Shown here one piece after another: positions 3,611-53,671 of a DNA stretch of 64,000 nt (positions within the stretch are counted from its first letter, which is position 1; every line of letters begins with the position of its first letter). Position numbers and translations under genes: made by a program. The DNA is from Escherichia coli (lineage in GTDB: Bacteria; Pseudomonadota; Gammaproteobacteria; Enterobacterales; Enterobacteriaceae): the NCBI RefSeq assembly GCF_003334335.1, contig NZ_QOWQ01000007.1; one strand, given 5' to 3'. Under the pieces are notes generated by a model. It did not search any database. It was given only the letters and a program-made list of their open reading frames with translations, and was not told the DNA's origin.

Positions 3611-3797
3611 GCCGGATGCGGCGTAAAACGCCTTATCCATCCTACGGTTCCGTGCTCGGGACCTGTAGGCCTGATAAGACGCGTCAGCGTCGCATCAGGC
3701 ACTGAATGCCGGATGCGGCGTGAACGCCTTATCCGGCCTACGGTTCTGTGCTCGGGTCTTGTAGGCCTGATAAGACGCGTCAGCGTCGCATCAGGCA
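3611..3797. repeat. Tandem REP/BIME elements (two ~95 bp units)
   Basis: gccggatgcggcg...cttatcc...gtaggcctgataagacgcgtcagcgtcgcatcaggc occurs twice in tandem, classic REP palindromes; causes an artificial 5' extension of the wcaK ORF in the six-frame track. Confidence 0.85.
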
Positions 3798-3856
3798 AAA
3801 AGCGGCAACGAACAAAACAAACACAGCCCACCTGGCATCAAATTTATGAGGAAAAA

Positions 3857-8827: not shown

Positions 8828-9084
8828 TGAAAATCTGACCGGATGTAACGGTTGATAAGAAAATTATAACGGCGGTGAAGATTCGTGGCGAAAGTAATTT
8901 GTTGCGAATATTCCTGCCGTTGTTTTATATAAATAATCAGAATAACAACGAGTTAGCAATAGGATTTTAGTCAAAGTTTTCCAGGATTTTCCTTGTTTCC
9001 AGAGCGGATTGGTAAGACAATTAGCGTTTGAATTTTTCGGGTTTAGCGCGAGTGGGTAACGCTCGTCACATCGTAGGCATGCAT

Positions 9085-9124
9085 GCAGTGCTCTGGTAGC
9101 TGTAAAGCCAGGGGCGGTAGCGTG
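9085..9124 (+). promoter_or_regulatory. JUMPstart element with ops site (RfaH-dependent antitermination signal) upstream of the O-antigen operon
   Basis: ggcggtagcgtg (ops consensus GGCGGTAGnnTG) at 9113-9124 within the galF-wzx leader. Confidence 0.65.
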
Positions 9125-9346
9125 TCCAGTTTTAATAAAAAACGGCAGATAATTATCGGTTATATAGTCAAAACAATAAAAGATATTTATTAAATATTAA
9201 CGGGGTTGGCTTTAGTGATAAAGTGAGGAAGAACTCAGAAAATGAGAGCATATATTAGAAGTTAGCAGTTTACTCAAATTTTAAACATTTATGTTAACAT
9301 ATGTTTCTGATGAAAATTGTGAGTTTGAATCAATTGCAAAATTATC

Positions 9347-10714
9347 ATGCTATCAAAGGACCATAATTTGTCACATATAAATGACCCTAATAAGTTCTGG
9401 CTTAAGTTAATCCCCCCTCAAATTTTATCAAAAATATCCAATTATAATGGATTATTGGCTGCTATCAATAATAGTGGATGGCTTATCTTTGATAAATTAA
9501 TTCGACTGGCTCTTGGGTTTATTGTTAGTGCATGGATTGCGCGATATCTTGGGCCGAATGATTTTGGTATACTAGCATATGTTCTTGCATATTTGGCCTT
9601 TTTTCAAACTATATCTGTTTTAGGTATGGATGGAATCATTGTTAGGGATATAGCGAGAGATAAAGATAAAGCCGGTGAAGTATTAGGAACTGCATTTATA
9701 TTAAGATTAACAGTTGGTTTTATTTGTTGGATATTTTCAATCATTGGGATGATTATATTTAATGGAATCCATGATGAGGTTGTGTATATTACGGCAATTA
9801 CAGGAGGTCTATTATTATTCCAATCCGTCGATACAGTAGATCTTTGGTTTCAGAGTCAAAGTGAAAGCCGGAGGACTGTTATTGCGAAATTGACAGCTTA
9901 CTTATTATCTAGCAGTGTAAAAATAATATTGATATTAAATGAAGCACCATTAATAGCATTCGCAACAATAATGTTATTTGAAACTGTGGTTTCAGCTGTA
10001 GCATTAGTTATTGCTTATAGAAAATATCCTTGTTATCAATCTTGGGTATTCTTAAAACAACGAGCATATAAAATTATTAATGAGTCCTGGCCCTTTATCT
10101 TAAGTGGCCTTTCAATCTCAATATATATGAGAATAGATCAAATCATGATCAAGGAGTTTATGGGGGATTCTGAACTGGGAATATATGCTGCAGTACTACC
10201 TTTTGCAACACTATGGTCGTTTATTCCAATGACACTATCAATAAGCTTGGCACCTTTTGTTGCAAAAACAAAACAAAAAGGGGAAAGAGAATATTGGACC
10301 TGTTTATATACAATCTTTAGAGTGTTTGCAATTATTGCTTGGTTTGTGGCAATACCTATATCACTAATGTCGAATCATATCGTTTCAATACTTTTAGGTG
10401 CTAAATATGAAGCTGGATCTGTGGTTTTATCTATAATGGCATTTGTAAATATTTTTATAAACATGGGCATAGCACAAAGTTTATGGATATTAAATGAAGG
10501 TAAATCTAAAGTTAGCTTGTATAAAACGATGATAGGTGCAGTTGTATGTGTTGCTGCTAACCTTATTTTGATTCCGAAATATGGGCTTATAGGGGCTTCT
10601 GTAAGCGCGTTATTGGCACAATTTACATCATGCATACTAAGCAATTTTCTCATATGCAAAAAAATATTTTATCTACAAGTTAGAAGTTTGTTTTTTATCA
10701 AGATGAAATTTTGA
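9347..10714 (+). CDS. wzx: O-antigen flippase (Wzx, MOP superfamily)
   Basis: 455 aa multi-pass hydrophobic protein; AT-rich coding sequence; first gene after JUMPstart; exact start not verified. Confidence 0.8.
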   Translation: MLSKDHNLSHINDPNKFWLKLIPPQILSKISNYNGLLAAINNSGWLIFDKLIRLALGFIVSAWIARYLGPNDFGILAYVLAYLAFFQTISVLGMDGIIVRDIARDKDKAGEVLGTAFILRLTVGFICWIFSIIGMIIFNGIHDEVVYITAITGGLLLFQSVDTVDLWFQSQSESRRTVIAKLTAYLLSSSVKIILILNEAPLIAFATIMLFETVVSAVALVIAYRKYPCYQSWVFLKQRAYKIINESWPFILSGLSISIYMRIDQIMIKEFMGDSELGIYAAVLPFATLWSFIPMTLSISLAPFVAKTKQKGEREYWTCLYTIFRVFAIIAWFVAIPISLMSNHIVSILLGAKYEAGSVVLSIMAFVNIFINMGIAQSLWILNEGKSKVSLYKTMIGAVVCVAANLILIPKYGLIGASVSALLAQFTSCILSNFLICKKIFYLQVRSLFFIKMKF

Positions 10715-10802
10715 TTAGTGAATAAGATATAGCGTTGCATATTTGTAATGAAATATAAATTAGATTAATCAGTAATATTGTTTTCAAAATAGGGATAATG
10801 CT

Positions 10803-12023
10803 TTGAATATAGTACTTTCGCTACTACTGCTTCTGATAGGGGGGATATCGATTATATGTGCAATAAATAAAAAGCGACCTATGCTTTTAATTCTTGCAGC
10901 CTTCTTTACAGTATATTTGGCGCTACGCCCCGTATTGCTTTCATTGGGCTTATATAATATTTATGCTTACCTCAACCCATCTGTTATCGATTATGACGAA
11001 AGCGCGCTTACGCATTGTATTATATTCACCCTAATATCATATGTATTGTTATTATTTACTTATCATAAAACAAAAAAAAGAATAAAGATTGATAAATCAA
11101 GCAATAATGACGATCAGAGAGAAAGTAATAGTAATTATAATTTTGTTGCATTTATAATTGCTCTATTACTAATCTTTTCAGTTATATTGATACCAATGTA
11201 TGTTTGTTTTGTTTATTTACTGCTGTTGATCTTGTATTATATTATCAAGTATAAAGGAGATGGGCGTAAGCTTAATGTTGTATTATCGGCTCTTTATTAT
11301 ATCTTATTAATTTTATTGCTTTTTTTTATTTCAGATGATCGTCGTGATTGGTTAGTGGCTATAGGTGTTCCTTTATATATATACATATTTGTATACTTAA
11401 AAAGCCTTATTAAGATTTTAATACCCTCAATAGTTTGCCTGCTACTTCTGGTATATATAAGTGTAGCATTCAGGAGCGGAGGTGATATATTTGATTATGA
11501 TGCTGTTAAAAATAGAGCTGAATCAGTAAGTGCAACTCTTACAGTACTTGAAGTAGAAACTGATTTTAGTATTGTATTTGATGATTATTTACTTTTATTT
11601 GACAAAAGATACTCAAGTATTGATTTTTTATACGGGGTGACAATTTTAAAACCTGTCATCTCGATTATCCCAAGAAGTATATTTCCCGACAAGCCAGAAA
11701 CATCTAGTCGACTTTTCCCAAAATATTTTAATAAACAGTTTTATAATGTTGGTGGTAGTGAACCTGTAACATTATTTGGGGAACTATATTGGAATTTTTC
11801 GTATTTGTCTCTCATTGTTTTTATGTTGTTGGGTAATATTATTGCTCTGATTGATAATACATATTTACATAATAGATCTAATTACTTATTCTCAGCATTG
11901 GTATTATCATTAAGCTTAACTGGTTTCCATCTTCTAAGAGGGCCGATTGATTCTTTTTGTTATCTGTATTTATGGTTGATATTGGCTTATCAATTATTGA
12001 ATGTCGTTAAAAAAATTAAATAG
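10803..12023 (+). CDS. wzy: Putative O-antigen polymerase (Wzy)
   Basis: 406 aa, extremely hydrophobic and AT-rich, many predicted TM segments; apparent TTG start at 10803 with an AGGGA Shine-Dalgarno ~6 nt upstream; position next to wzx. Confidence 0.7.
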   Translation: MNIVLSLLLLLIGGISIICAINKKRPMLLILAAFFTVYLALRPVLLSLGLYNIYAYLNPSVIDYDESALTHCIIFTLISYVLLLFTYHKTKKRIKIDKSSNNDDQRESNSNYNFVAFIIALLLIFSVILIPMYVCFVYLLLLILYYIIKYKGDGRKLNVVLSALYYILLILLLFFISDDRRDWLVAIGVPLYIYIFVYLKSLIKILIPSIVCLLLLVYISVAFRSGGDIFDYDAVKNRAESVSATLTVLEVETDFSIVFDDYLLLFDKRYSSIDFLYGVTILKPVISIIPRSIFPDKPETSSRLFPKYFNKQFYNVGGSEPVTLFGELYWNFSYLSLIVFMLLGNIIALIDNTYLHNRSNYLFSALVLSLSLTGFHLLRGPIDSFCYLYLWLILAYQLLNVVKKIK

Positions 12024-12032
12024 GATATTAAG

Positions 12033-12956
12033 ATGAGTAGCAATCTTGCACCAATATGTTTATTTGTGTATAACAGATATGAGCATACAGTACGAACTGT
12101 TGAGGCTTTGAAAAAAAACACACTTGCATCAAAGTCTGAACTTTATATATTTAGTGATGCGTCCAAAGATTCAAAATCTGTAGTTCAGGTACAAAAAGTT
12201 AGAGAGTATGTTGATACAATAAAAGGTTTTAAGAAAATAACAATAATTAAAGCACCAAAAAACATGGGGTTGGCGGAATCAATTATTAGCGGGGTGTCAT
12301 CTGTTATAAAAAAATATGGGCGTGTAATTGTATTTGAAGATGATCTAGTCTCAAGTCCACTGACTCTAGAATACCTCAATATAATGTTAGATAACTATAA
12401 GAATCAAGAAGACGTTATGTCGGTTACTAGCTACTCGTATCCTGAAAAAACATTAGAAATAGATAAATTTTACAATTTCGATAATTATTTTACGGGGAGA
12501 CCATGTTCATGGGGATGGGCAACATGGCAAGATAGGTGGGAGTCTATTCAATGGGAGGGTGATATATATAGAGATTATTTAAAAAACGAAAGCATGCAGA
12601 AGCAATTCATGAAATATTCAGGTGTCGATATTGACCGAATGCTTAAAAAACAATTGGCAGGGCATATTGATTCGTGGGCAGTAAGATTTGTCTTTAATTG
12701 TTTTTTACAGAAAAAATTAGCTTCATACCCGACTAAATCGTATATTACAAATATCGGTTCTGATGGGACAGGTACGCATCGGGGAGTTAATGAAGAATAT
12801 ATAGTGAATTACTCCTTAAATATTAATCTGCCAACAAATTTGCTAAATGATCTATATGTAGATAAGGATATTTGGAAGCAGTTTAATTTATTTGTTAGGA
12901 AAAAATATTTTTTTCGGAGGGCTTTACTGTTTATAAGAAGGAAATTTTATGCTTAA
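12033..12956 (+). CDS. Putative glycosyltransferase, family not recognised
   Basis: 307 aa ORF in the O-antigen cluster; no GT11 fucosyltransferase motif recognised; function inferred from context only. Confidence 0.6.
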   Translation: MSSNLAPICLFVYNRYEHTVRTVEALKKNTLASKSELYIFSDASKDSKSVVQVQKVREYVDTIKGFKKITIIKAPKNMGLAESIISGVSSVIKKYGRVIVFEDDLVSSPLTLEYLNIMLDNYKNQEDVMSVTSYSYPEKTLEIDKFYNFDNYFTGRPCSWGWATWQDRWESIQWEGDIYRDYLKNESMQKQFMKYSGVDIDRMLKKQLAGHIDSWAVRFVFNCFLQKKLASYPTKSYITNIGSDGTGTHRGVNEEYIVNYSLNINLPTNLLNDLYVDKDIWKQFNLFVRKKYFFRRALLFIRRKFYA

Positions 12957-14061
12957 AAAACTATTAAAGAAGTTTTTCATTCGTTATGCGTATAAATCAT
13001 TTAACAAAAGCGGTTCGAAAAAGGCATTATTATCATTTATCGTCCACCCCTATTTTTTCAAAACATTTAAGCATCCGAATATAATTGAGTTAGAATGTAT
13101 AGTGTCTATTTTAGAAAAGATGGGTTACTGTATTACGGTTGTAGATTATCGAAGAAAAAAAATTCATAAAAAATACGATTTAGTGTTGGGGTTTGGGGAT
13201 TGCTTTGAATATGCTATAAATCATAACTATGGCACTAAGTTTATACTTTATTCAACAGGTTTTCCTGCTTTTATTCAAAACCAGAATGCTATCGAAGCAT
13301 TTTTCCGTTTTAAACAAATGTACACTGAAAAACAGAACATTGTATCTGATAAGTATATACGTTTAACTGAAAATGTTTGGCCCAGACAATTAATAGAAAG
13401 TGATGCTATTATCACTATAGGTAATGATTATGTTAAATCATTATATGAACGATTTCACGATAAGATATATTGTATTCCATCTACAGCTTTTAAAATAATA
13501 ACTCAGCAATCTACAACAATAAATTCTATAAAAAAAAATTCATTTTTGTGGTTTGGAGGGAAAGGGTGTATTCACAAGGGACTGGATTTATGTATAGCAG
13601 CAATAGCTGGCACAGAGTATAAGTTATACATAGCAGGTCCTATAGACGATGAAATTTGTATTTTTAATGACATATTGAGTACTTATCCAGATAATTTTGA
13701 GTATCTTGGTTTTCTTTCTGTTAATACTGAAGAATTTTGCGAGGTAGTTGAGCATATCCCATTTTGTATATTGCCGTCATGTAGTGAAGCAATGGCTACC
13801 TCCATTGTGACGCTGGCTAGTAATTTCGGAACGATTCCGTTAATTACAAAGGAATGTGGTTTTGACTTTGATAATGAAATCATAGAAATAAATTCATTAA
13901 CTATTCAATCTGTTAAACAAGCATTATTTAAAGCGTCATTGTTGACTGAAGATGAAATTTATATTAGAAAATCTTCTATCAAAAGAAAATACAGTTCTTA
14001 TCATAGCAATGAATCGTTTTACAGTAAATTTGAATATTCTCTAAAAGAAATACTTAGATAG
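12949..14061 (+). CDS. Putative glycosyltransferase (GT4-like C-terminal half)
   Basis: 370 aa; C-terminal region carries a GT-B-like ...LPSCSEAMATSIVTLASNFGTIPLI... motif; overlaps the upstream ORF by 8 nt. Confidence 0.6.
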   Translation: MLKKLLKKFFIRYAYKSFNKSGSKKALLSFIVHPYFFKTFKHPNIIELECIVSILEKMGYCITVVDYRRKKIHKKYDLVLGFGDCFEYAINHNYGTKFILYSTGFPAFIQNQNAIEAFFRFKQMYTEKQNIVSDKYIRLTENVWPRQLIESDAIITIGNDYVKSLYERFHDKIYCIPSTAFKIITQQSTTINSIKKNSFLWFGGKGCIHKGLDLCIAAIAGTEYKLYIAGPIDDEICIFNDILSTYPDNFEYLGFLSVNTEEFCEVVEHIPFCILPSCSEAMATSIVTLASNFGTIPLITKECGFDFDNEIIEINSLTIQSVKQALFKASLLTEDEIYIRKSSIKRKYSSYHSNESFYSKFEYSLKEILR

Positions 14062-14071
14062 GTAATTAACA

Positions 14072-15082
14072 GTGATCATCTATGATGGAATTATAGAAAA
14101 ATTGCAGTCTGGCGGTGGTGTTACCGTAGTTTTTAATGAAATTGTCTCGAGGTTAACAGAATATAAATATATTAGCTATGACACTTGTTCTAAAATATCG
14201 ATAGCTAGAAACAATATGATAAAACCATCAAGATTTTTGGAACGATATAGAGATTGTGTTATTCCTGATTACAATCCTCAAGATAAGGCTATATTTCATT
14301 CGACTTATTATAGATTACCTCATCATTTGAACATACCAGTCATAACAACAGTTCATGATTTTACCTATGAAAAGTTCGTTGATGGTCCTGCGAAGAAGAT
14401 TCATTCATGGCAAAAAAATAGAGCAATACGTCGGAGTGATATAATCATCTGTGTATCACAAAATACCGCAAATGACTTGATGAGATATTGTCCGGTAAAT
14501 TCCAGTCGTATTCGTGTAATATATAATGGAGTTTCAGATGAATATTATCCTTTACCCGAAATTAATAATGTTGATTCTCAAAAAGTATTGTTTGTAGGGG
14601 CAAGAGGTGGTTATAAAAACTTTGAATTAGCAATAGATGCAGTTTCCTCTGTAGCCGGATTAGAGTTACATATAGTGGGGGGGGGGGATTTAACAACACA
14701 AGAAAAAATAAAATTAGAAAGTAAATTGTCGGGTAGATATTTTTGGTTGGGTAAGCTTACAAATCAAGAGCTAAATATTGCATATAATAGTAGCTATGCG
14801 TTGCTTTATCCATCAAGTTATGAAGGTTTTGGAATCCCAATTATCGAGGCAATGCGTGCTGGTTGTCCAGTTATTGCTGCGAATTCGTCTTCAATACCTG
14901 AAGTTGCTGGCGATGCGGCAATATTAGTGGATGATTTGAATATATCTACTTTTCGCGAAGCCCTATTAAGCATACCAGCATGTCGCAATGAATTGATCTC
15001 CGCAGGTTTCGCACAGTCTAGAAAATTTTCTTGGGAGCGCTGTTTCCAGGAAACGTTATTAGCTTATAATGAATTGCTTTAA
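14072..15082 (+). CDS. Glycosyltransferase family 4
   Basis: 336 aa; [33 protein letters not shown] is a classic GT4 signature; apparent GTG start; contains a G11 homopolymer at 14677-14687. Confidence 0.8.
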
Positions 15083-48003: not shown

Positions 48004-48030
48004 TTCTCATATGCGCATCTCTTATGAGCA
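48004..48030 (+). promoter_or_regulatory. Imperfect inverted repeat TtCTCATATG-N7-CTTATGAGCA upstream of the SorC-family regulator gene (candidate operator)
   Basis: Read directly; half-site resembles the TGCTCAT palindromes at 53066-53204. Confidence 0.35.
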
Positions 48031-48079: not shown

Positions 48080-49057
48080 ATGGAAAAGAGAATGACGAAA
48101 CAGAAAAAAAACAGCCGCTGGCAGGGTTACGATCCTCGCTACATATACTCGCTCGTGGTCAGACGTTATTTTGCGGATATGAAAACCAAGATTGAGATTG
48201 CAGAGGAGCTTGGCGTTTCCCGCTTTAAAGTTGCCAGATTGATCGATGAGGCGATCGAACAGGATTACGTGAGGTTTATCTTCCCTAAGCAGCAAGCGAT
48301 GGATGAAGAAATCGCCAGTAATTTACGGAAAAAATTTCATCTGGAAGATGCAATTGTTCTTTCAGTTGCTGAATCCTGGACGACGCAAGAAGAACTCAAT
48401 CACAAATTGGGTGAAGTCACCGCTGAATATCTTATGCAATCTCTTCATGAAGGTATGAAAGTGGGGATCGCCTGGGGGCGTGTATTATCAAGCACGGTCA
48501 GTAAGTTGAGCAAGTTGCCTCCTTTAGACGTTGTGCAGTTATCTGGCGTACATCCGGGGATTGAGTTCAGTCAAGGGCCAATAGATCTTATTCATAAGAT
48601 CGCTGCCATTTCGCAGGGAAAAGCGCACCCAATGTACGTGCCGATGTGGGTCGATGACGAAGAGCTTGCTGCCAGACTGGCAGGTGATCCTGCGGTATTA
48701 GATACACAGCAATATTACTCACAGTTGGATGTGGTTATCACCGGGATAGGTGACTGGAAATCAGGTTCTTCAAGCTTGTGTAAAATATTTCCGGATACCT
48801 GGTGCGAAGCGTTGTTTCAACAAGATATCGCTGCGGATGTGTGTATCTCGTTGGTCAACAGGGAAGGGAAGATTCTTCATAGTCCTATTGAACGTCTGGG
48901 ATTTGGCATTTCGACGGATCAACTACAAAAAGCCAAAAAAGTGATTGGTGTCGCTGGAGGAGAAGAAAAATATGAAGGCATCCTTGCTTCGCTGAAATCC
49001 GGACTTTTGAATGTCTTAATTACTGATTTTGATACGGCCATTAAACTTCTGGATTAA
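48080..49057 (+). CDS. SorC/DeoR-type transcriptional regulator (N-terminal HTH, C-terminal sugar-phosphate-binding domain)
   Basis: 325 aa; HTH region IEIAEELGVSRFKVARLIDEA followed by a SorC-like effector domain; start could also be the ATG at 48092. Confidence 0.8.
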   Translation: MEKRMTKQKKNSRWQGYDPRYIYSLVVRRYFADMKTKIEIAEELGVSRFKVARLIDEAIEQDYVRFIFPKQQAMDEEIASNLRKKFHLEDAIVLSVAESWTTQEELNHKLGEVTAEYLMQSLHEGMKVGIAWGRVLSSTVSKLSKLPPLDVVQLSGVHPGIEFSQGPIDLIHKIAAISQGKAHPMYVPMWVDDEELAARLAGDPAVLDTQQYYSQLDVVITGIGDWKSGSSSLCKIFPDTWCEALFQQDIAADVCISLVNREGKILHSPIERLGFGISTDQLQKAKKVIGVAGGEEKYEGILASLKSGLLNVLITDFDTAIKLLD

Positions 49058-49108: not shown

Positions 49109-49567
49109 TCAGGATGCTTCGAGCGTATCCTCTACATATTTAGCCACGCGCGTTGCAGGTAAATTGCGGCAAGTCTCAACAAAGGCGTTATCCTGAAACA
49201 GTGTGAATAAACGACGCAATATCGACATATGTTGATCACTGGTGGCAAATGCCAGGTTAAACATAATGCTACAATCAACTGTTAAATCAGCATCTTCCAT
49301 TTGCCCGAAAGTGACATCATTGGCGAAACGAACAATACTGATACTGTTGACATTTACCAGCGTGTAATCGGCATGGGGAATGGCGATACCCTGACCGTTT
49401 GCCATCATTAGTCCTGTCGGATAGCTTTTTTCACGTTTCAGACAGGCGTCAATGTATTCTGCAGTGATATAGCCTTTTTCCAATAATTGCGTACCAGCAA
49501 AGGTGATCGCCGTTTGATAGTCACTGATGCTGTTATCAACATCATTCACCAGAATTTCAAATTTCAT
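49109..49567 (-). CDS. PTS enzyme IIA component (galactitol-family PTS)
   Basis: 152 aa; phosphorylatable His context GQGIAIPHADYTL typical of PTS EIIA type 2. Confidence 0.85.
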   Translation of the reverse strand: MKFEILVNDVDNSISDYQTAITFAGTQLLEKGYITAEYIDACLKREKSYPTGLMMANGQGIAIPHADYTLVNVNSISIVRFANDVTFGQMEDADLTVDCSIMFNLAFATSDQHMSILRRLFTLFQDNAFVETCRNLPATRVAKYVEDTLEAS

Positions 49568-49577
49568 TGCACACCTG

Positions 49578-49862
49578 TTATTTCAACATCTCTTCTTTAA
49601 CTGCAGCGAAAATCTCATCTTCGCCCAGACCAGTCAGTAATCCAGCGCCAACGATGACACGAGTAGTAATGGCCGGGTTATCGAGTTTGGTCGATGAAAC
49701 CACCAGGTCATAGCTGTTGAAGGTATCGCTGGTGCATGCCATTAACGAAGATTTATCGACTTGCGCTTCAATTTTCTCTTCTTTCAGGAAGTCCTGCAGT
49801 ACAGAGACCATGATGGAAGATGAGGCAATTCCGTTTCCGCAAACTACTAAGATTTTTTTCAT
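49578..49862 (-). CDS. PTS enzyme IIB component (GatB-like)
   Basis: 94 aa; MKKILVVCGNGIASSSIM with the active-site Cys near the N-terminus. Confidence 0.85.
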   Translation of the reverse strand: MKKILVVCGNGIASSSIMVSVLQDFLKEEKIEAQVDKSSLMACTSDTFNSYDLVVSSTKLDNPAITTRVIVGAGLLTGLGEDEIFAAVKEEMLK

Positions 49863-49885
49863 TTGATTATTCCTCTGTAAAAGAT

Positions 49886-51256
49886 TTAAAGCGCTTTTTC
49901 CAAATCCGTTTCAATCTGGCGACGTGATTTTTGTTTAATTAAGTATCCAATAGATAACAAAAGGATACCTGCCATCAAATAGCCAATGATTCCAACATGG
50001 CTCAGGGCGGCAAACAGACCAGTAAATGGATTCGCTGACGGGTTAAGTGAAGAGTACATTACGCTGGCATCCGGGTTTGTACCAAATTTCTGGAAGACTT
50101 CGTTGGTAGCCGGTGCCATCCACGACGCAATATACAGACCACCACCGAACAATATGATCGAGGTCACCCAGGTGCGAATAATGTTGCCATTAAAAACAGG
50201 TACCATGCAGGCAATGAAAAACACAAACTGAGAGAGGTCACCCAGTGGCATAACGCGGTTGCCGGGCAAGATCACGGCGAGGATCACAATCACCGGGATC
50301 AGCAATAATGCAGGGGCGATAACTGATGGATGGCCCACAATCAGAGCAGTGTCCATACCAACAGTGATTTGACGATCCGGGAACCGTTTGACCAGTTTTT
50401 TGCGTGCTACGTTGGAAAGCGGAACAAGTCCTTCCATCATGATAGAGGTCATACGTGGTAACAGAAGCATGACCGCAGCCAGATACATCCCTAACTGTAG
50501 GCTGGCGATTATGGTGTGGTATGGGGATTTCCAGCCATAACCACAAAAGCCCAATAAAATACCAATAATAAAACCAACCATAGTTGGATCGCCGAGAATG
50601 CCAAACCGTTTCTGAATAGTTTCGGCGGTCACATTCAGATTACGGAAGCCTGGGATGCGATCATAAATCCAGTTGAATGGATAAGCGAAAAGTAAGTAGG
50701 TATTGGCAACCGGGTGAGAGATCGCAACACCTTTTGGCAGGTTAAAGAATTTTTCGTTATTTTTAGCACCAAGATCGGCAGCGATCAGCGCCCAGACATG
50801 GAATAGCGCGGCGGTCAATGCGCCATACAGGAAGCTACCAGAATAGACGCCAACAATTGCCCCCATTGACGCATTTTGATGAAGATTGAAGACATCAACG
50901 TTAACACAGTCAGTCAGGCGGGCGACCAGCATTGCAATATTTACCGCAACACAGAGGGGAATAATGATAGCGCCCATGCTGGAGCCAAATCCCATAACCG
51001 CAGTCGCTGCGCCACCAACATCGATGGCACTGAGCGAGGAACCTGTTGCTTCTGCTAATCCGGTGACTGCCGGTTGCATTTTTTCCAGCATCAGTTTGAT
51101 GGTCATGGTTAACGCAATGAAACCAATGCCGACTTTGATGGCAGACGAGATACATTCTGAAAGAGGACGGCCAAGTATCTTCATCAGTACCAGAAAGATG
51201 ACCGGGATAAATATAAAATTTCCCAGATCGTTTATAAATTGCGTGATCAGTTCCAT
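49886..51256 (-). CDS. PTS enzyme IIC permease (GatC/SgcC family)
   Basis: 456 aa; shares blocks with GatC as I recall it (IGIGF, VNVDVFN, IQKRFG, MEGLVP, LIVGHPSV, PGNRVMPLGDL). Confidence 0.85.
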   Translation of the reverse strand: MELITQFINDLGNFIFIPVIFLVLMKILGRPLSECISSAIKVGIGFIALTMTIKLMLEKMQPAVTGLAEATGSSLSAIDVGGAATAVMGFGSSMGAIIIPLCVAVNIAMLVARLTDCVNVDVFNLHQNASMGAIVGVYSGSFLYGALTAALFHVWALIAADLGAKNNEKFFNLPKGVAISHPVANTYLLFAYPFNWIYDRIPGFRNLNVTAETIQKRFGILGDPTMVGFIIGILLGFCGYGWKSPYHTIIASLQLGMYLAAVMLLLPRMTSIMMEGLVPLSNVARKKLVKRFPDRQITVGMDTALIVGHPSVIAPALLLIPVIVILAVILPGNRVMPLGDLSQFVFFIACMVPVFNGNIIRTWVTSIILFGGGLYIASWMAPATNEVFQKFGTNPDASVMYSSLNPSANPFTGLFAALSHVGIIGYLMAGILLLSIGYLIKQKSRRQIETDLEKAL

Positions 51257-51259
51257 ACA

Positions 51260-51796
51260 TTAACCCTCAGATTTTTCATCATCTGGTCGGAAACCCATAT
51301 TCCAGCGTACATCAGCGGGCTTAACCAGCAATGCATTATCGTTACGTTCAGCTTCTAGCAAGTTCTTTTTAGAATTTTCTCTGGCGGTGGTGAAGTCGAA
51401 TGGGTTATCCAACCATGCATCGACAATCATTTTGCTGTATTCGAGATCGTTGACCCGGCAACCCAGTCCAATAACTTGTGCGTTATTGCTGAGTCGCGCC
51501 CGCTTTGCGGAGTAGGGGTTAGTAACCGCAACGGCTCTTATGCCCCAGTGTTTGTTGATCTGACAAGTAAAGCCAATGCCAGTCCCACAAATGTAAATTC
51601 CCAGACGGCACTCATCGCGTTGAATAATGCCTGCCATTTCGTCGGCCAGACGCGCGAAGTTATTGACACCTTGTTCCTTACATGTGACGGGATCGTACAC
51701 GATCTCCATGTTTTTCTCTTCTATGAGGTATTTTTTTATCTCCTCTTTACGTGCAAAACCTACATCATCGCTTGCGATAGCAATCTTTGTTTTCAT
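51260..51796 (-). CDS. RpiB/LacA/LacB-family sugar-phosphate isomerase (ribose-5-P isomerase B / allose-6-P isomerase-like) with a C-terminal extension
   Basis: 178 aa; IYICGTGIGFTCQINK...IRAVAVTNPYSAKRARLSNNAQVIGLGCRV...KMIVDAWL aligns with E. coli RpiB blocks from memory; ~30 extra C-terminal residues. Confidence 0.8.
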   Translation of the reverse strand: MKTKIAIASDDVGFARKEEIKKYLIEEKNMEIVYDPVTCKEQGVNNFARLADEMAGIIQRDECRLGIYICGTGIGFTCQINKHWGIRAVAVTNPYSAKRARLSNNAQVIGLGCRVNDLEYSKMIVDAWLDNPFDFTTARENSKKNLLEAERNDNALLVKPADVRWNMGFRPDDEKSEG

Positions 51797-52144
51797 TTCA
51801 TTTTGCCTGTCGTTAAGTAACTAAAGCCAAGTATGCTGTTGGTAAATATTGGTTGTCAATTGAGATCTGAATCACAAAATTTATAACTAATTGATTTTAA
51901 TGGTATTAAAAACCAATAAAAACAAATAAAAAATAAATTAAGCCAATTGAGACAAATTGGGATTGTACAGTGGCGTTGTAATGAATAATAAAAACTCATT
52001 TATTATCAATCGGATATATGGTTTTTGAACTGTTGTCTTTATTGGGTTTATTTGTACTTTCCACTGTTAGTGTTTGTTTTTGTTTGCATCATCTGTGCTA
52101 TGCTTGGCGTTTTCTAAGATGGGTAATAGATTTCAGGAGGAAGG

Positions 52145-52900
52145 ATGTATCTGGTTGATGAAAGGCGAAAGTTAATACTTGAAGACTTAATGTCGGCAGG
52201 TACGGTCTATGTCAGTGATCTTGCACGAAAGTATGAAGTAACGTATGAGACCATCAGGAAAGATTTGACCCATCTTGAACAAAAAGGGCTGCTGATCAAA
52301 AGCCATGGTGGGGCGACTTTAAAGCAAAGGGCTATAGAGCATCCCTTTCAGGTCAGGGAAAAAGAAAATAACTCTTATAAGAAGGCGATAGCTCGTAAAG
52401 CGCTTGATTTCATTCCGCCTAATAGTTCGATGATTATCGGTACGGGCAGTACCACTTTTGAGCTGGCTAACCTGTTATGTATGAAGTCTGGGTTTAAAAT
52501 CTTCACAGATTCGCTCCCCGTTGCCAGTGTGTTGATTGAATCTGACAACCAGGTTTTTCTCTTTGGCGGCGAACTGCGTAGAAAGAGTTCCTCAGTGTTT
52601 GGGGGGTGGGCGGTATCTATGATCAACGATATACATGTTGATCTCTGTTTTATTGGAACCGACGGCTTTAGTAACATGACTGGTCCATCGACGCCTTCTT
52701 CTTCTGATGCGTTTTTGGATCGTACGATAATTTCGCACTCAGACAAAAAATATATCCTCGGTGATTACACCAAGTTTGAGCGCAGCAGTTTATTTAAGAT
52801 CTGCGACTGGTCGGAGATCACCGCCCTTATAACCAACGATCATGCCGACAAAGAGGGGATTGCCGAAGTCGCAAAATACACGTCAGTAATAACCTGTTAG
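52145..52900 (+). CDS. DeoR-family transcriptional regulator
   Basis: 251 aa; N-terminal HTH (RRKLILEDLMSAGTVYVSDLARKYEVTYETIRKDLTHLEQKGLL) and DeoR C-terminal sugar-phosphate sensor domain. Confidence 0.85.
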   Translation: MYLVDERRKLILEDLMSAGTVYVSDLARKYEVTYETIRKDLTHLEQKGLLIKSHGGATLKQRAIEHPFQVREKENNSYKKAIARKALDFIPPNSSMIIGTGSTTFELANLLCMKSGFKIFTDSLPVASVLIESDNQVFLFGGELRRKSSSVFGGWAVSMINDIHVDLCFIGTDGFSNMTGPSTPSSSDAFLDRTIISHSDKKYILGDYTKFERSSLFKICDWSEITALITNDHADKEGIAEVAKYTSVITC

Positions 52901-53065
52901 AACTCACTACGACACGCCTTCTCCCTTCGAATCAGCTTTGCCAAATGTAATCATTTCCCAATTATCAAGTGAGCATCCATGGCGATGCTTGCTTAGCGCC
53001 CTCTATTGAATACATCCTCTGCCTATTGCCAGTTTCAGTTACTTTTTTGCGAAGAAATCACGATT

Positions 53066-53204
53066 TGCTCATATGAGCATAAATACTGACGCCATTATGT
53101 GCTTTTTTGTGATCTGGATTTAATTTCTCAGATCTCGTTATTTATCCACAGGATCGTTGTGCTATAACTGCTCATATGAATATTGTTCAATGCTCATGTG
53201 AGCA
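53066..53204 (+). promoter_or_regulatory. Promoter/operator region of the second PTS operon with three copies of a TGCTCAT-type palindrome
   Basis: TGCTCATATGAGCA (53066-53079, perfect palindrome), TGCTCATATGAA (53169-53180), TGCTCATGTGAGCA (53191-53204), the last one ~10 nt upstream of the RBS. Confidence 0.5.
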
Positions 53205-53227
53205 TTTTTGGGTGAGGGGGAAAGGAT

Positions 53228-53671
53228 ATGATATCGATCAGTGTTGCCGATGGTGCGGGACTGCAGAATTACGATGCCGTGCTTGAGCATATTTTTAACA
53301 CGCACCGTACAACGAATACGGTGAAAGAGAGCTGGCTCAATGCTATGCGTAAACGCGAAGCGGAATATCCGACAGGAATAGAACTGGAAGGTTATTCTAT
53401 CGCTATACCACACTGTGATAGTGAACATGCGAATCAACCTGCTATTTATATCATCCGTCTGCCAGACGCAATACCTGTGAACAGGGCTGATGAAGATGGA
53501 ATATTGTGGGTCAGACTCGTCGTTAATCTTATTGTTACGGATCCTGCTGACCAGCTTCGATTGTTAAAGTCATTATTTAACCATCTCCAAAATGAAGAAT
53601 TTTACCAAAACTTACTGACACTTCCCGTCGATGATGCAAAAGCACTTTTTGTATCCAAAATAATCCAATAG
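53228..53671 (+). CDS. PTS enzyme IIA component (GatA-like)
   Basis: 147 aa; EYPTGIELEGYSIAIPHCDSEHA parallels the GatA active-site region. Confidence 0.85.
   Translation: MISISVADGAGLQNYDAVLEHIFNTHRTTNTVKESWLNAMRKREAEYPTGIELEGYSIAIPHCDSEHANQPAIYIIRLPDAIPVNRADEDGILWVRLVVNLIVTDPADQLRLLKSLFNHLQNEEFYQNLLTLPVDDAKALFVSKIIQ

Follow-up and report, generated by a model that had tools for sequence, protein, structure and literature searches.

Predicted promoters, candidate operators and a CRP-like site in the divergent control region of an accessory sugar-PTS island of Escherichia coli

The gap and its island

Within a stretch of 64,000 nucleotides of Escherichia coli DNA (hereafter the window), an AT-rich gap lies between an rpiB-like gene and a deoR gene of a sugar-PTS island. 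Is it controlled by a specific regulator or chiefly silenced because of its composition, and which of its repeats matter? A sequence-only reading had described it as 348 bp separating the divergent rpiB-like and DeoR genes, which is correct by the coordinates of the flanking ORFs, 51260-51796 on the minus strand and 52145-52900 on the plus strand. In E. coli ATCC 8739 these are annotated as RpiB/LacA/LacB isomerase and DeoR/GlpR regulator, respectively. The genes and gaps concerned are as follows.

48080-49057, plus strand: SorC-type regulator gene
49109-51796, minus strand: rpiB-like isomerase, PTS IIC (Gat family), IIB and IIA genes, the regulated operon
51797-52144, no strand: intergenic control region between the rpiB-like gene and deoR, 348 bp, GC 0.30
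52145-52900, plus strand: DeoR/GlpR-family regulator gene, presumed repressor of the CCAAT arrays
52901-53227: second gap, the 327-bp control region of PTS module 2
to 57350: module 2 side with PTS IIA/IIB/IIC, rpe, SDR and hxlB, then large hypothetical and RHS genes

The stretch 51260-52900 has 100% identity to several complete genomes. The island is accessory: of 5426 complete E. coli genomes, 240 (~4%) carry it, on the chromosome every time. In ATCC 8739 it comes after cobUST-ldtA. The GC content is 0.43 in the island, 0.51 in the cob genes and 0.46 in the whole window, and the sugar-PTS module is horizontally acquired. Neither the regulator nor the isomerase matched an NCBIfam equivalog, and literature searches for the function of the island and for its regulator found no characterisation; a study of STEC merely tabulates the island genes (PMC5359238). 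From the set of RpiB-like, HxlB-like and Rpe/AlsE-like enzymes it may be speculated that the substrate is a rare hexose or hexitol. On the 3' side of the PTS island (57780-64000), two very large hypothetical proteins are annotated in ATCC 8739, together with an immunity protein of the NTF2 fold and an RHS core protein interrupted by an internal stop; the stretch resembles a polymorphic-toxin locus next to the sugar island.

The gap had also been placed between the two PTS modules. This holds for position only; module 2 has its own control region at 52901-53227 with different palindromes. Copies of GCTCAYRTGAGC are found there at 53066, 53169 and 53191, and the SorC-type gene is preceded by two degenerate ones (48004-48030). 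In the module 2 gap of the enteric orthologues, two to three copies are present in most and one in Providencia. These palindromes are probably the operators of the SorC-type regulator, and module 2 would therefore be controlled apart from 51797-52144. The palindrome TGCTCATATGAGCA was considered as an operator of 51797-52144 and rejected, being confined to the module 2 control region and the sequence upstream of the SorC-type gene. In E. coli, a search for terminator-like sites between deoR and IIA2 gave none.

Conservation, base composition and repeats

Orthologous loci were collected by a DeoR protein scan with one genome per species, plus a protein search for further orthologues, which gave at least 148 regulator homologues. 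The whole 12-gene island was found in Entomohabitans, Citrobacter, Enterobacter wuhouensis, Klebsiella oxytoca and Providencia, and the core unit in Thermophilibacter, a member of the Coriobacteriia. Regulator orthologues with 59-78% identity were found in Cedecea, Gilliamella, Vibrio cholerae, Enterococcus faecalis, Paenibacillus, Streptococcus suis, Companilactobacillus and Lactobacillus. The layout deoR <> rpiB-IIC-IIB-IIA(-SIS) is kept in 16 loci of Gammaproteobacteria, Firmicutes and Coriobacteriia, and DeoR is the sole regulator adjacent to the gap in all 16. Since the regulator is divergent from rpiB-IIC-IIB-IIA(-SIS) at every locus, the conserved unit consists of the regulator, PTS module 1 and the gap, with PTS module 2 and the SorC-type gene as additions in the Enterobacterales copies of the island. 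The V. cholerae copy has a module-2-like gene set alongside, and in E. coli the SIS/HxlB-like gene is missing from module 1, with hxlB in module 2 instead. This distribution indicates that the module was spread by cross-phylum horizontal transfer. In Enterobacter sp. EA-1, IIC1, IIC2, SDR and other genes gave only partial tblastn matches, which suggests a decaying copy of the island; its control-region blocks are still kept.

In the alignment of seven enterobacterial gaps, two blocks are conserved between genera, about 51822-51936 and 52068-52105, with an unalignable centre between them. The left halves of 10 gammaproteobacterial gaps share invariant CCAA, TTGG, TTGG, GAT, TCACA, TA, TTG-T and AAA..C..AA columns, and the half-site positions 42/52/117(/147) are constant across Gammaproteobacteria. 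Small ORFs in the gap are mostly within or spanning the non-conserved centre, and an Rfam scan of 51000-53500 (E<=1) gave no relevant match to a leader RNA, riboswitch or sRNA. The conserved elements appear to be tandem CCAAT-type arrays with phased A-tracts, two promoters and a CRP-like site, and the features of the gap were assigned as follows.

51830-51859, minus strand: predicted promoter of rpiB-IIC-IIB-IIA (promoter scan, 10/12)
51838-51853, minus strand: candidate operator O1, ACCAATATTTACCAAC, two CCAAT-type half-sites with a 10-bp period that fill the promoter spacer
51861-51876, no strand: CRP-like site TGAGATCTGAATCACA, TGAGA-N6-TCACA, abutting the -35, 9/10 core positions
51884-51896, minus strand: IHF-core match AATCAATTAGTTA to the consensus WATCAANNNNTTR, or a degenerate ATTGR repressor half-site
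51905-51938, plus strand: candidate operator array O2, ATTAAAAACCAATAAAAACAAATAAAAAATAAAT, 10-bp units with phased A5-6 tracts
51942-51960, plus strand: O3, GCCAATTGAGACAAATTGG, a CCAAT-N5-CAAAT tandem and a CCAATT-N6-AATTGG dyad at once
51961-52067, no strand: central spacer, unconserved between genera, with weaker 9-bp-spaced ATTGGG/ATTTGT copies at 52040-52057
52072-52087, plus strand: O4, GTTTGTTTTTGTTTGC, a degenerate tandem half-site pair over the -35 region of the deoR promoter
52096-52104, plus strand: predicted deoR promoter, extended -10 TGCTATGCT (TGcTATGCT), about 40 nt upstream of the deoR start
52134-52140, plus strand: RBS CAGGAGG of deoR

The strong AT-richness described earlier was confirmed, the GC of 0.302 being in the lowest 3.7% of the 348-bp windows within the 64-kb window; other very AT-rich stretches are found at about 9000-14600 and 62700-63300 (GC down to 0.25 and 0.30). 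H-NS is known to prefer AT-rich curved DNA, and the gap, which the sequence-only reading had put forward as a possible H-NS-type silencing target, could be regarded chiefly as a target of xenogeneic silencing, in which AT-rich bent DNA nucleates H-NS filaments and the repeats matter as curved DNA. Binding of H-NS in E. coli is plausible because the region is AT-rich and bent. The GC of 0.30 stands in a 0.43-GC island beside cob genes at 0.51, the island is accessory (240/5426), and three A5-6 runs at 51908, 51918 and 51928, spaced exactly 10 bp apart, predict a bend, an arrangement reproduced in none of 2000 shuffles. However, the motif TCGATAAATT, which we take to be the high-affinity nucleation motif of H-NS, has no match with up to two mismatches inside 51797-52144. 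Moreover, the orthologous gap is 10-19 GC points under its flanking genes in 15 of 15 other hosts including Firmicutes and Coriobacteriia, where the drop is equal, and H-NS is a proteobacterial protein. Gap GC is low in every host, and the promoter and operator content therefore accounts for the AT-richness. The conserved positions also include specific C/G residues (CCAA, TTGG, TCACA), beyond mere A/T content. Silencing as the chief function is therefore rather unlikely, if still a serious contender; H-NS binding would supplement specific regulation and be no substitute for it, and as such a non-exclusive addition it is plausible.

The 9-mer CAATTGAGA, to which the sequence-only reading had drawn attention, does exist in two exact copies (51857-51865 and 51944-51952), spaced by 87 bp and without others in the window, but it does not stand as a meaningful motif. 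That the two copies are themselves operator half-sites of a regulator is very hard to credit, even though they are the sole exact copies in 64 kb. Exact direct repeats of 9 bp or more are present in 57% of the dinucleotide shuffles of the gap, and with one mismatch the 9-mer is not enriched in the window (14 versus 20 expected). Copy 1 reads CAACTGAGA in five of the seven enterobacterial orthologues; copy 2, in the unalignable centre, is found only in E. coli among the seven aligned gaps, and is itself replaced by CAATTATGA in an O157:H16 E. coli allele. Both copies are accounted for otherwise: copy 1 is made up of four bases from the end of the -35, a single spacer base and four from the beginning of the CRP-like half-site, and copy 2 overlaps the CCAAT-type half-site pair inside GCCAATTGAGACAAATTGG. 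The 9-mer repeat is coincidental.

The inverted repeat CCAATT...AATTGG reported with it is present as CCAATT-N6-AATTGG in GCCAATTGAGACAAATTGG (51942-51960) and overlaps a candidate recognition element. A perfect inverted repeat with 6-bp arms is found in 76% of shuffles, and the gap contains six of them versus 1.9 expected (P=0.04). The tandem arrangement of the half-sites exceeds chance. CCAAY-N5-CMAAY occurs three times in the gap, versus 0.02 expected, and nowhere else in the window, although the CCAAT pattern was first spotted by eye in the same sequences as tested. In the 15 other loci, strict CCAAY-N5-CCAAY was found 21 times in 4.6 kb of orthologous gaps versus three times in 154.6 kb elsewhere, and a de novo search (one site per sequence, eight non-enterobacterial gaps only) recovered the motif AATTGGTTTTGATTGG with 19.4 bits versus 12.6 +/- 0.33 for 20 shuffled sets, conservation statistics that are inflated by the relatedness, through descent or transfer, of the orthologous gaps. 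When the resulting PWM was scanned over 128,000 positions, the top match of the whole 64-kb window fell at 51913-51928 in O2 (15.1 bits), and further matches were O4, O1, O3 and a site beside the -10. These results show that CCAAT-type elements exist, are conserved and are gap-specific.

Candidate promoters, operators and their regulator

The supposition that both promoters lie in the gap gained support in silico, from the promoter scan and conservation on the rpiB side and from an extended -10 before deoR. TTGACA-N18-CATACT facing rpiB, with the -35 at 51859..51854 and the -10 at 51835..51830 separated by an 18-nt spacer, is the only strong promoter call in the gap, and transcription would start near 51823. 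Its hexamers are invariant in the seven enterobacterial gaps, and an equivalent promoter was called in E. faecalis (TTGACA-17-TATTAT, 11/12), V. cholerae and Paenibacillus. On the other side, the extended -10 of deoR falls in the second conserved block and has TGTG-TAT--T invariant in seven genera, an analogous TG-extended -10 was called in Paenibacillus, and transcription would start near 52111.

O1, with a regex match at 51852 on the minus strand, has TTGG columns that are invariant in 10 gammaproteobacterial gaps and that take the same position in Firmicutes; the spacer half-site pair is arranged alike in every orthologue. An extra inverted half-site, GCCAAG, is present at 51826-51831, across the -10 from O1. 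The PWM score of O1 is just 7.3 bits with a matrix trained on non-enterobacterial gaps. In V. cholerae (3671-3696 of its locus), CAAAGCCAATTGTAGAATTGGTTTTG was flagged by the terminator scan; this was a false call, the sequence being a CCAATT-N4-AATTGG operator dyad that straddles the -10 of the rpiB promoter.

The half-sites of the CRP-like site are kept in nine of 10 Gammaproteobacteria, with a variable N6 that also differs between E. coli alleles. Perfect TGTGA-N6-TCACA is found in Cedecea and Gilliamella, the site is degenerate in V. cholerae, and it was found in none of the six Gram-positive gaps; its presence is confined to hosts with CRP. The promoter region is probably CRP-activated. 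In E. coli the site is centred on 51868.5, some 43-46 bp ahead of the start that the predicted -10 implies, versus the canonical -41.5 (-61.5 and -71.5 being further productive positions). In the rpiB leader of Companilactobacillus (3789-3802 of its locus), TGTAATCGTTTCCA fits the cre (CcpA) consensus within one mismatch, and weaker cre-like strings are found at the equivalent place in other Firmicute gaps. In Gram-positives, such a site may correspond to the CRP site. However, a strict cre match (<=1 mismatch) in the Gram-positive leaders is limited to Companilactobacillus, and therefore no general claim is made for CcpA.

O2, located about 65-75 bp upstream of the rpiB promoter, is a tandem ACCAAT/A-tract array in inverted orientation. 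Its core ACCAATAAAAACAAAT (51912-51927) has counterparts in Paenibacillus (ACCAATCAAAACCAAT) and Gilliamella (ACCAATATAAACCAAT). An allele of E. coli OkiPb01680 carries a 10-bp insertion, TAAAAACAAA, relative to 51905-51925, i.e., one extra A-tract/CCAAT unit, and thus the copy number of the operator array is still changing within the species. The O3 CCAAT, 30 bp from that of O2, is kept in position in E. coli, Citrobacter, E. wuhouensis and K. oxytoca, and the remainder of O3 beyond this first CCAAT is E. coli-specific. In the O157:H16 allele, the O3 spacer is changed from GAG to ATG with both arms intact. The O3 dyad resembles the CCAATT-N4-AATTGG dyads seen around the -10 in Vibrio and Gilliamella, and the chance that O3 acts as an auxiliary operator is roughly even. 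O4 scores 9.6 bits with the PWM and is part of the conserved block on the deoR side (block B); its counterpart in Providencia, ATTTGCTTTTATTGG, is a clear copy of the tandem half-site motif. From its position, O4 would give autoregulation of deoR.

The regulator and all of its orthologues have Pfam HTH_DeoR (PF08220) at the N-terminus and the DeoRC sensor domain (PF00455) at the C-terminus. Its NCBIfam matches are to DeoR-family models only, with AgaR (NF040755) as the best; the score of 170.7 bits is far below the curated equivalog cut-off of 260, and because of this the regulator was rejected as an AgaR equivalog. The segment V(T/S)YETIRKDL is invariant in the annotated DeoR-type HTH region, but we take this segment to be generic to the DeoR family, and it is therefore no proof of shared specificity.

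The arrays could possibly be bound by another protein (SorC-type regulator, IHF or Fis) or act as an UP-element or bend, with DeoR acting elsewhere. The assignment of the arrays to DeoR rests on sequence, the phasing of the A-tracts is significant, and the IHF-core match at 51884-51896 shows IHF-like conservation, with TAA and TTGAT conserved and N4 variable, a pattern that fits IHF and a degenerate half-site alike. The IHF core WATCAANNNNTTR has four matches in 64 kb versus 4.4 expected. However, the SorC-type gene is missing from the Firmicute, Coriobacteriia, Cedecea, Gilliamella and Vibrio loci that retain CCAAT arrays, and the sequence upstream of it and the module 2 region are marked by the different conserved palindrome GCTCAYRTGAGC. 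The arrays also persist in Firmicutes, from which we know of no IHF or Fis, and their place in the core promoter spacer is that of a repressor. Binding by such another protein is accordingly improbable.

In our judgement, the gap is likely a DeoR-repressed and autoregulated divergent promoter-operator region that is probably CRP-activated. According to this model, the sigma-70 promoter TTGACA-N18-CATACT on the minus strand would drive rpiB-IIC-IIB-IIA and the extended -10 promoter on the plus strand the DeoR-family regulator gene. The regulator, probably oligomeric, would recognise CCAAT/ATTGG-type half-sites in tandem with a 10-bp period, and its occupancy of O1 in the spacer would block RNA polymerase at the rpiB promoter. 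O1 and O2 are mutually inverted and about seven helical turns apart, bracketing the -35 and the CRP-like site. Pairing of the two could form a repression loop that encloses both, with bending possibly aided by the phased A-tracts and the IHF-core match (51884-51896). O3 would be an additional dyad of the E. coli lineage, and O4 over the deoR promoter would provide autoregulation. A phosphorylated pathway intermediate (sugar phosphate) might release the repressor as inducer, and cAMP-CRP at TGAGA-N6-TCACA beside the -35 would activate transcription once glucose is absent.

A more tentative proposal, with slightly less in favour of it than against it, is that the regulator and the tandem ACCAAT array form a portable cassette that kept its promoter geometry while moving among Firmicutes, Coriobacteriia and Gammaproteobacteria, each recipient grafting on its own global catabolite signal. 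The geometry would be two spacer half-sites and an inverted array about seven helical turns upstream. Gammaproteobacteria would have gained a CRP site between the -35 and the half-site that follows, and a cre-like leader site would serve in at least one lactobacillus. The E. coli lineage would be adding or removing 10-bp operator units, as in O3 and the OkiPb01680 indel. In the literature searched, no description of a CCAAT-type operator was found for any DeoR-family protein.

Significance and comparison with known systems

Based on the results of this study, a testable map of promoters, four candidate operators and a CRP-like site is available for an uncharacterised accessory PTS island, which is found in about 4% of complete E. 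coli genomes and also in many Firmicutes of the gut, and a recognition motif is predicted for an unstudied group of DeoR-family orthologues. The motif and promoter could help to identify the sugar substrate by inducer screens with reporters, or could give an orthogonal inducible promoter. The general understanding of such regions is unchanged.

Tandem operators in arrays of about 10-bp repeats, bound over the promoter by an oligomeric DeoR-family repressor, are known from GlpR and FruR; the half-site sequence is different here. AgaR of E. coli K-12 is a DeoR-family repressor with multiple operator copies, which controls a PTS sugar operon with CRP dependence and divergent promoters, and its operator consensus is TTTC-rich. 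AgaR is the best NCBIfam match of the regulator, yet with 171 versus 260 bits, and its operator consensus is not a CCAAT tandem. The MtnR/CRP-controlled DHAP-shunt operon of ExPEC follows a similar regulatory logic, being located on an accessory island with DeoR-family repression and CRP activation near the -35, and a CAAAT...ATTTG semi-palindrome over its core promoter was proposed as operator (PMC12632272). However, its regulator gene lies downstream in convergent orientation, the region upstream of the operon spans 799 bp with two promoters, and the two regulators are not orthologous.

The closest published case comes from the D-tagatose cluster of E. coli Nissle 1917. Its tagR-tagY region is 341 bp long and has divergent promoters, two DeoR-family operators and a CRP site immediately before the -35, and the tag transcription starts were mapped by dRNA-seq (PMC12226905). 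As in the region studied here, a gap of about 340 bp in a strain-variable E. coli sugar island separates a DeoR-family repressor gene from a catabolic or transport operon, with a CRP or CRP-like site just upstream of the -35 and at least two repeated operator copies near the core promoter. The two differ in the operator, which is a tandem ACCAAT here and of the CTTTCAAAATGAAAG type in tag, in the transporter, which is a PTS here and an ABC transporter in tag, and in that the starts are predicted here and mapped in tag. Seen beside these systems, the rpiB-deoR gap is an ordinary bacterial divergent control region.
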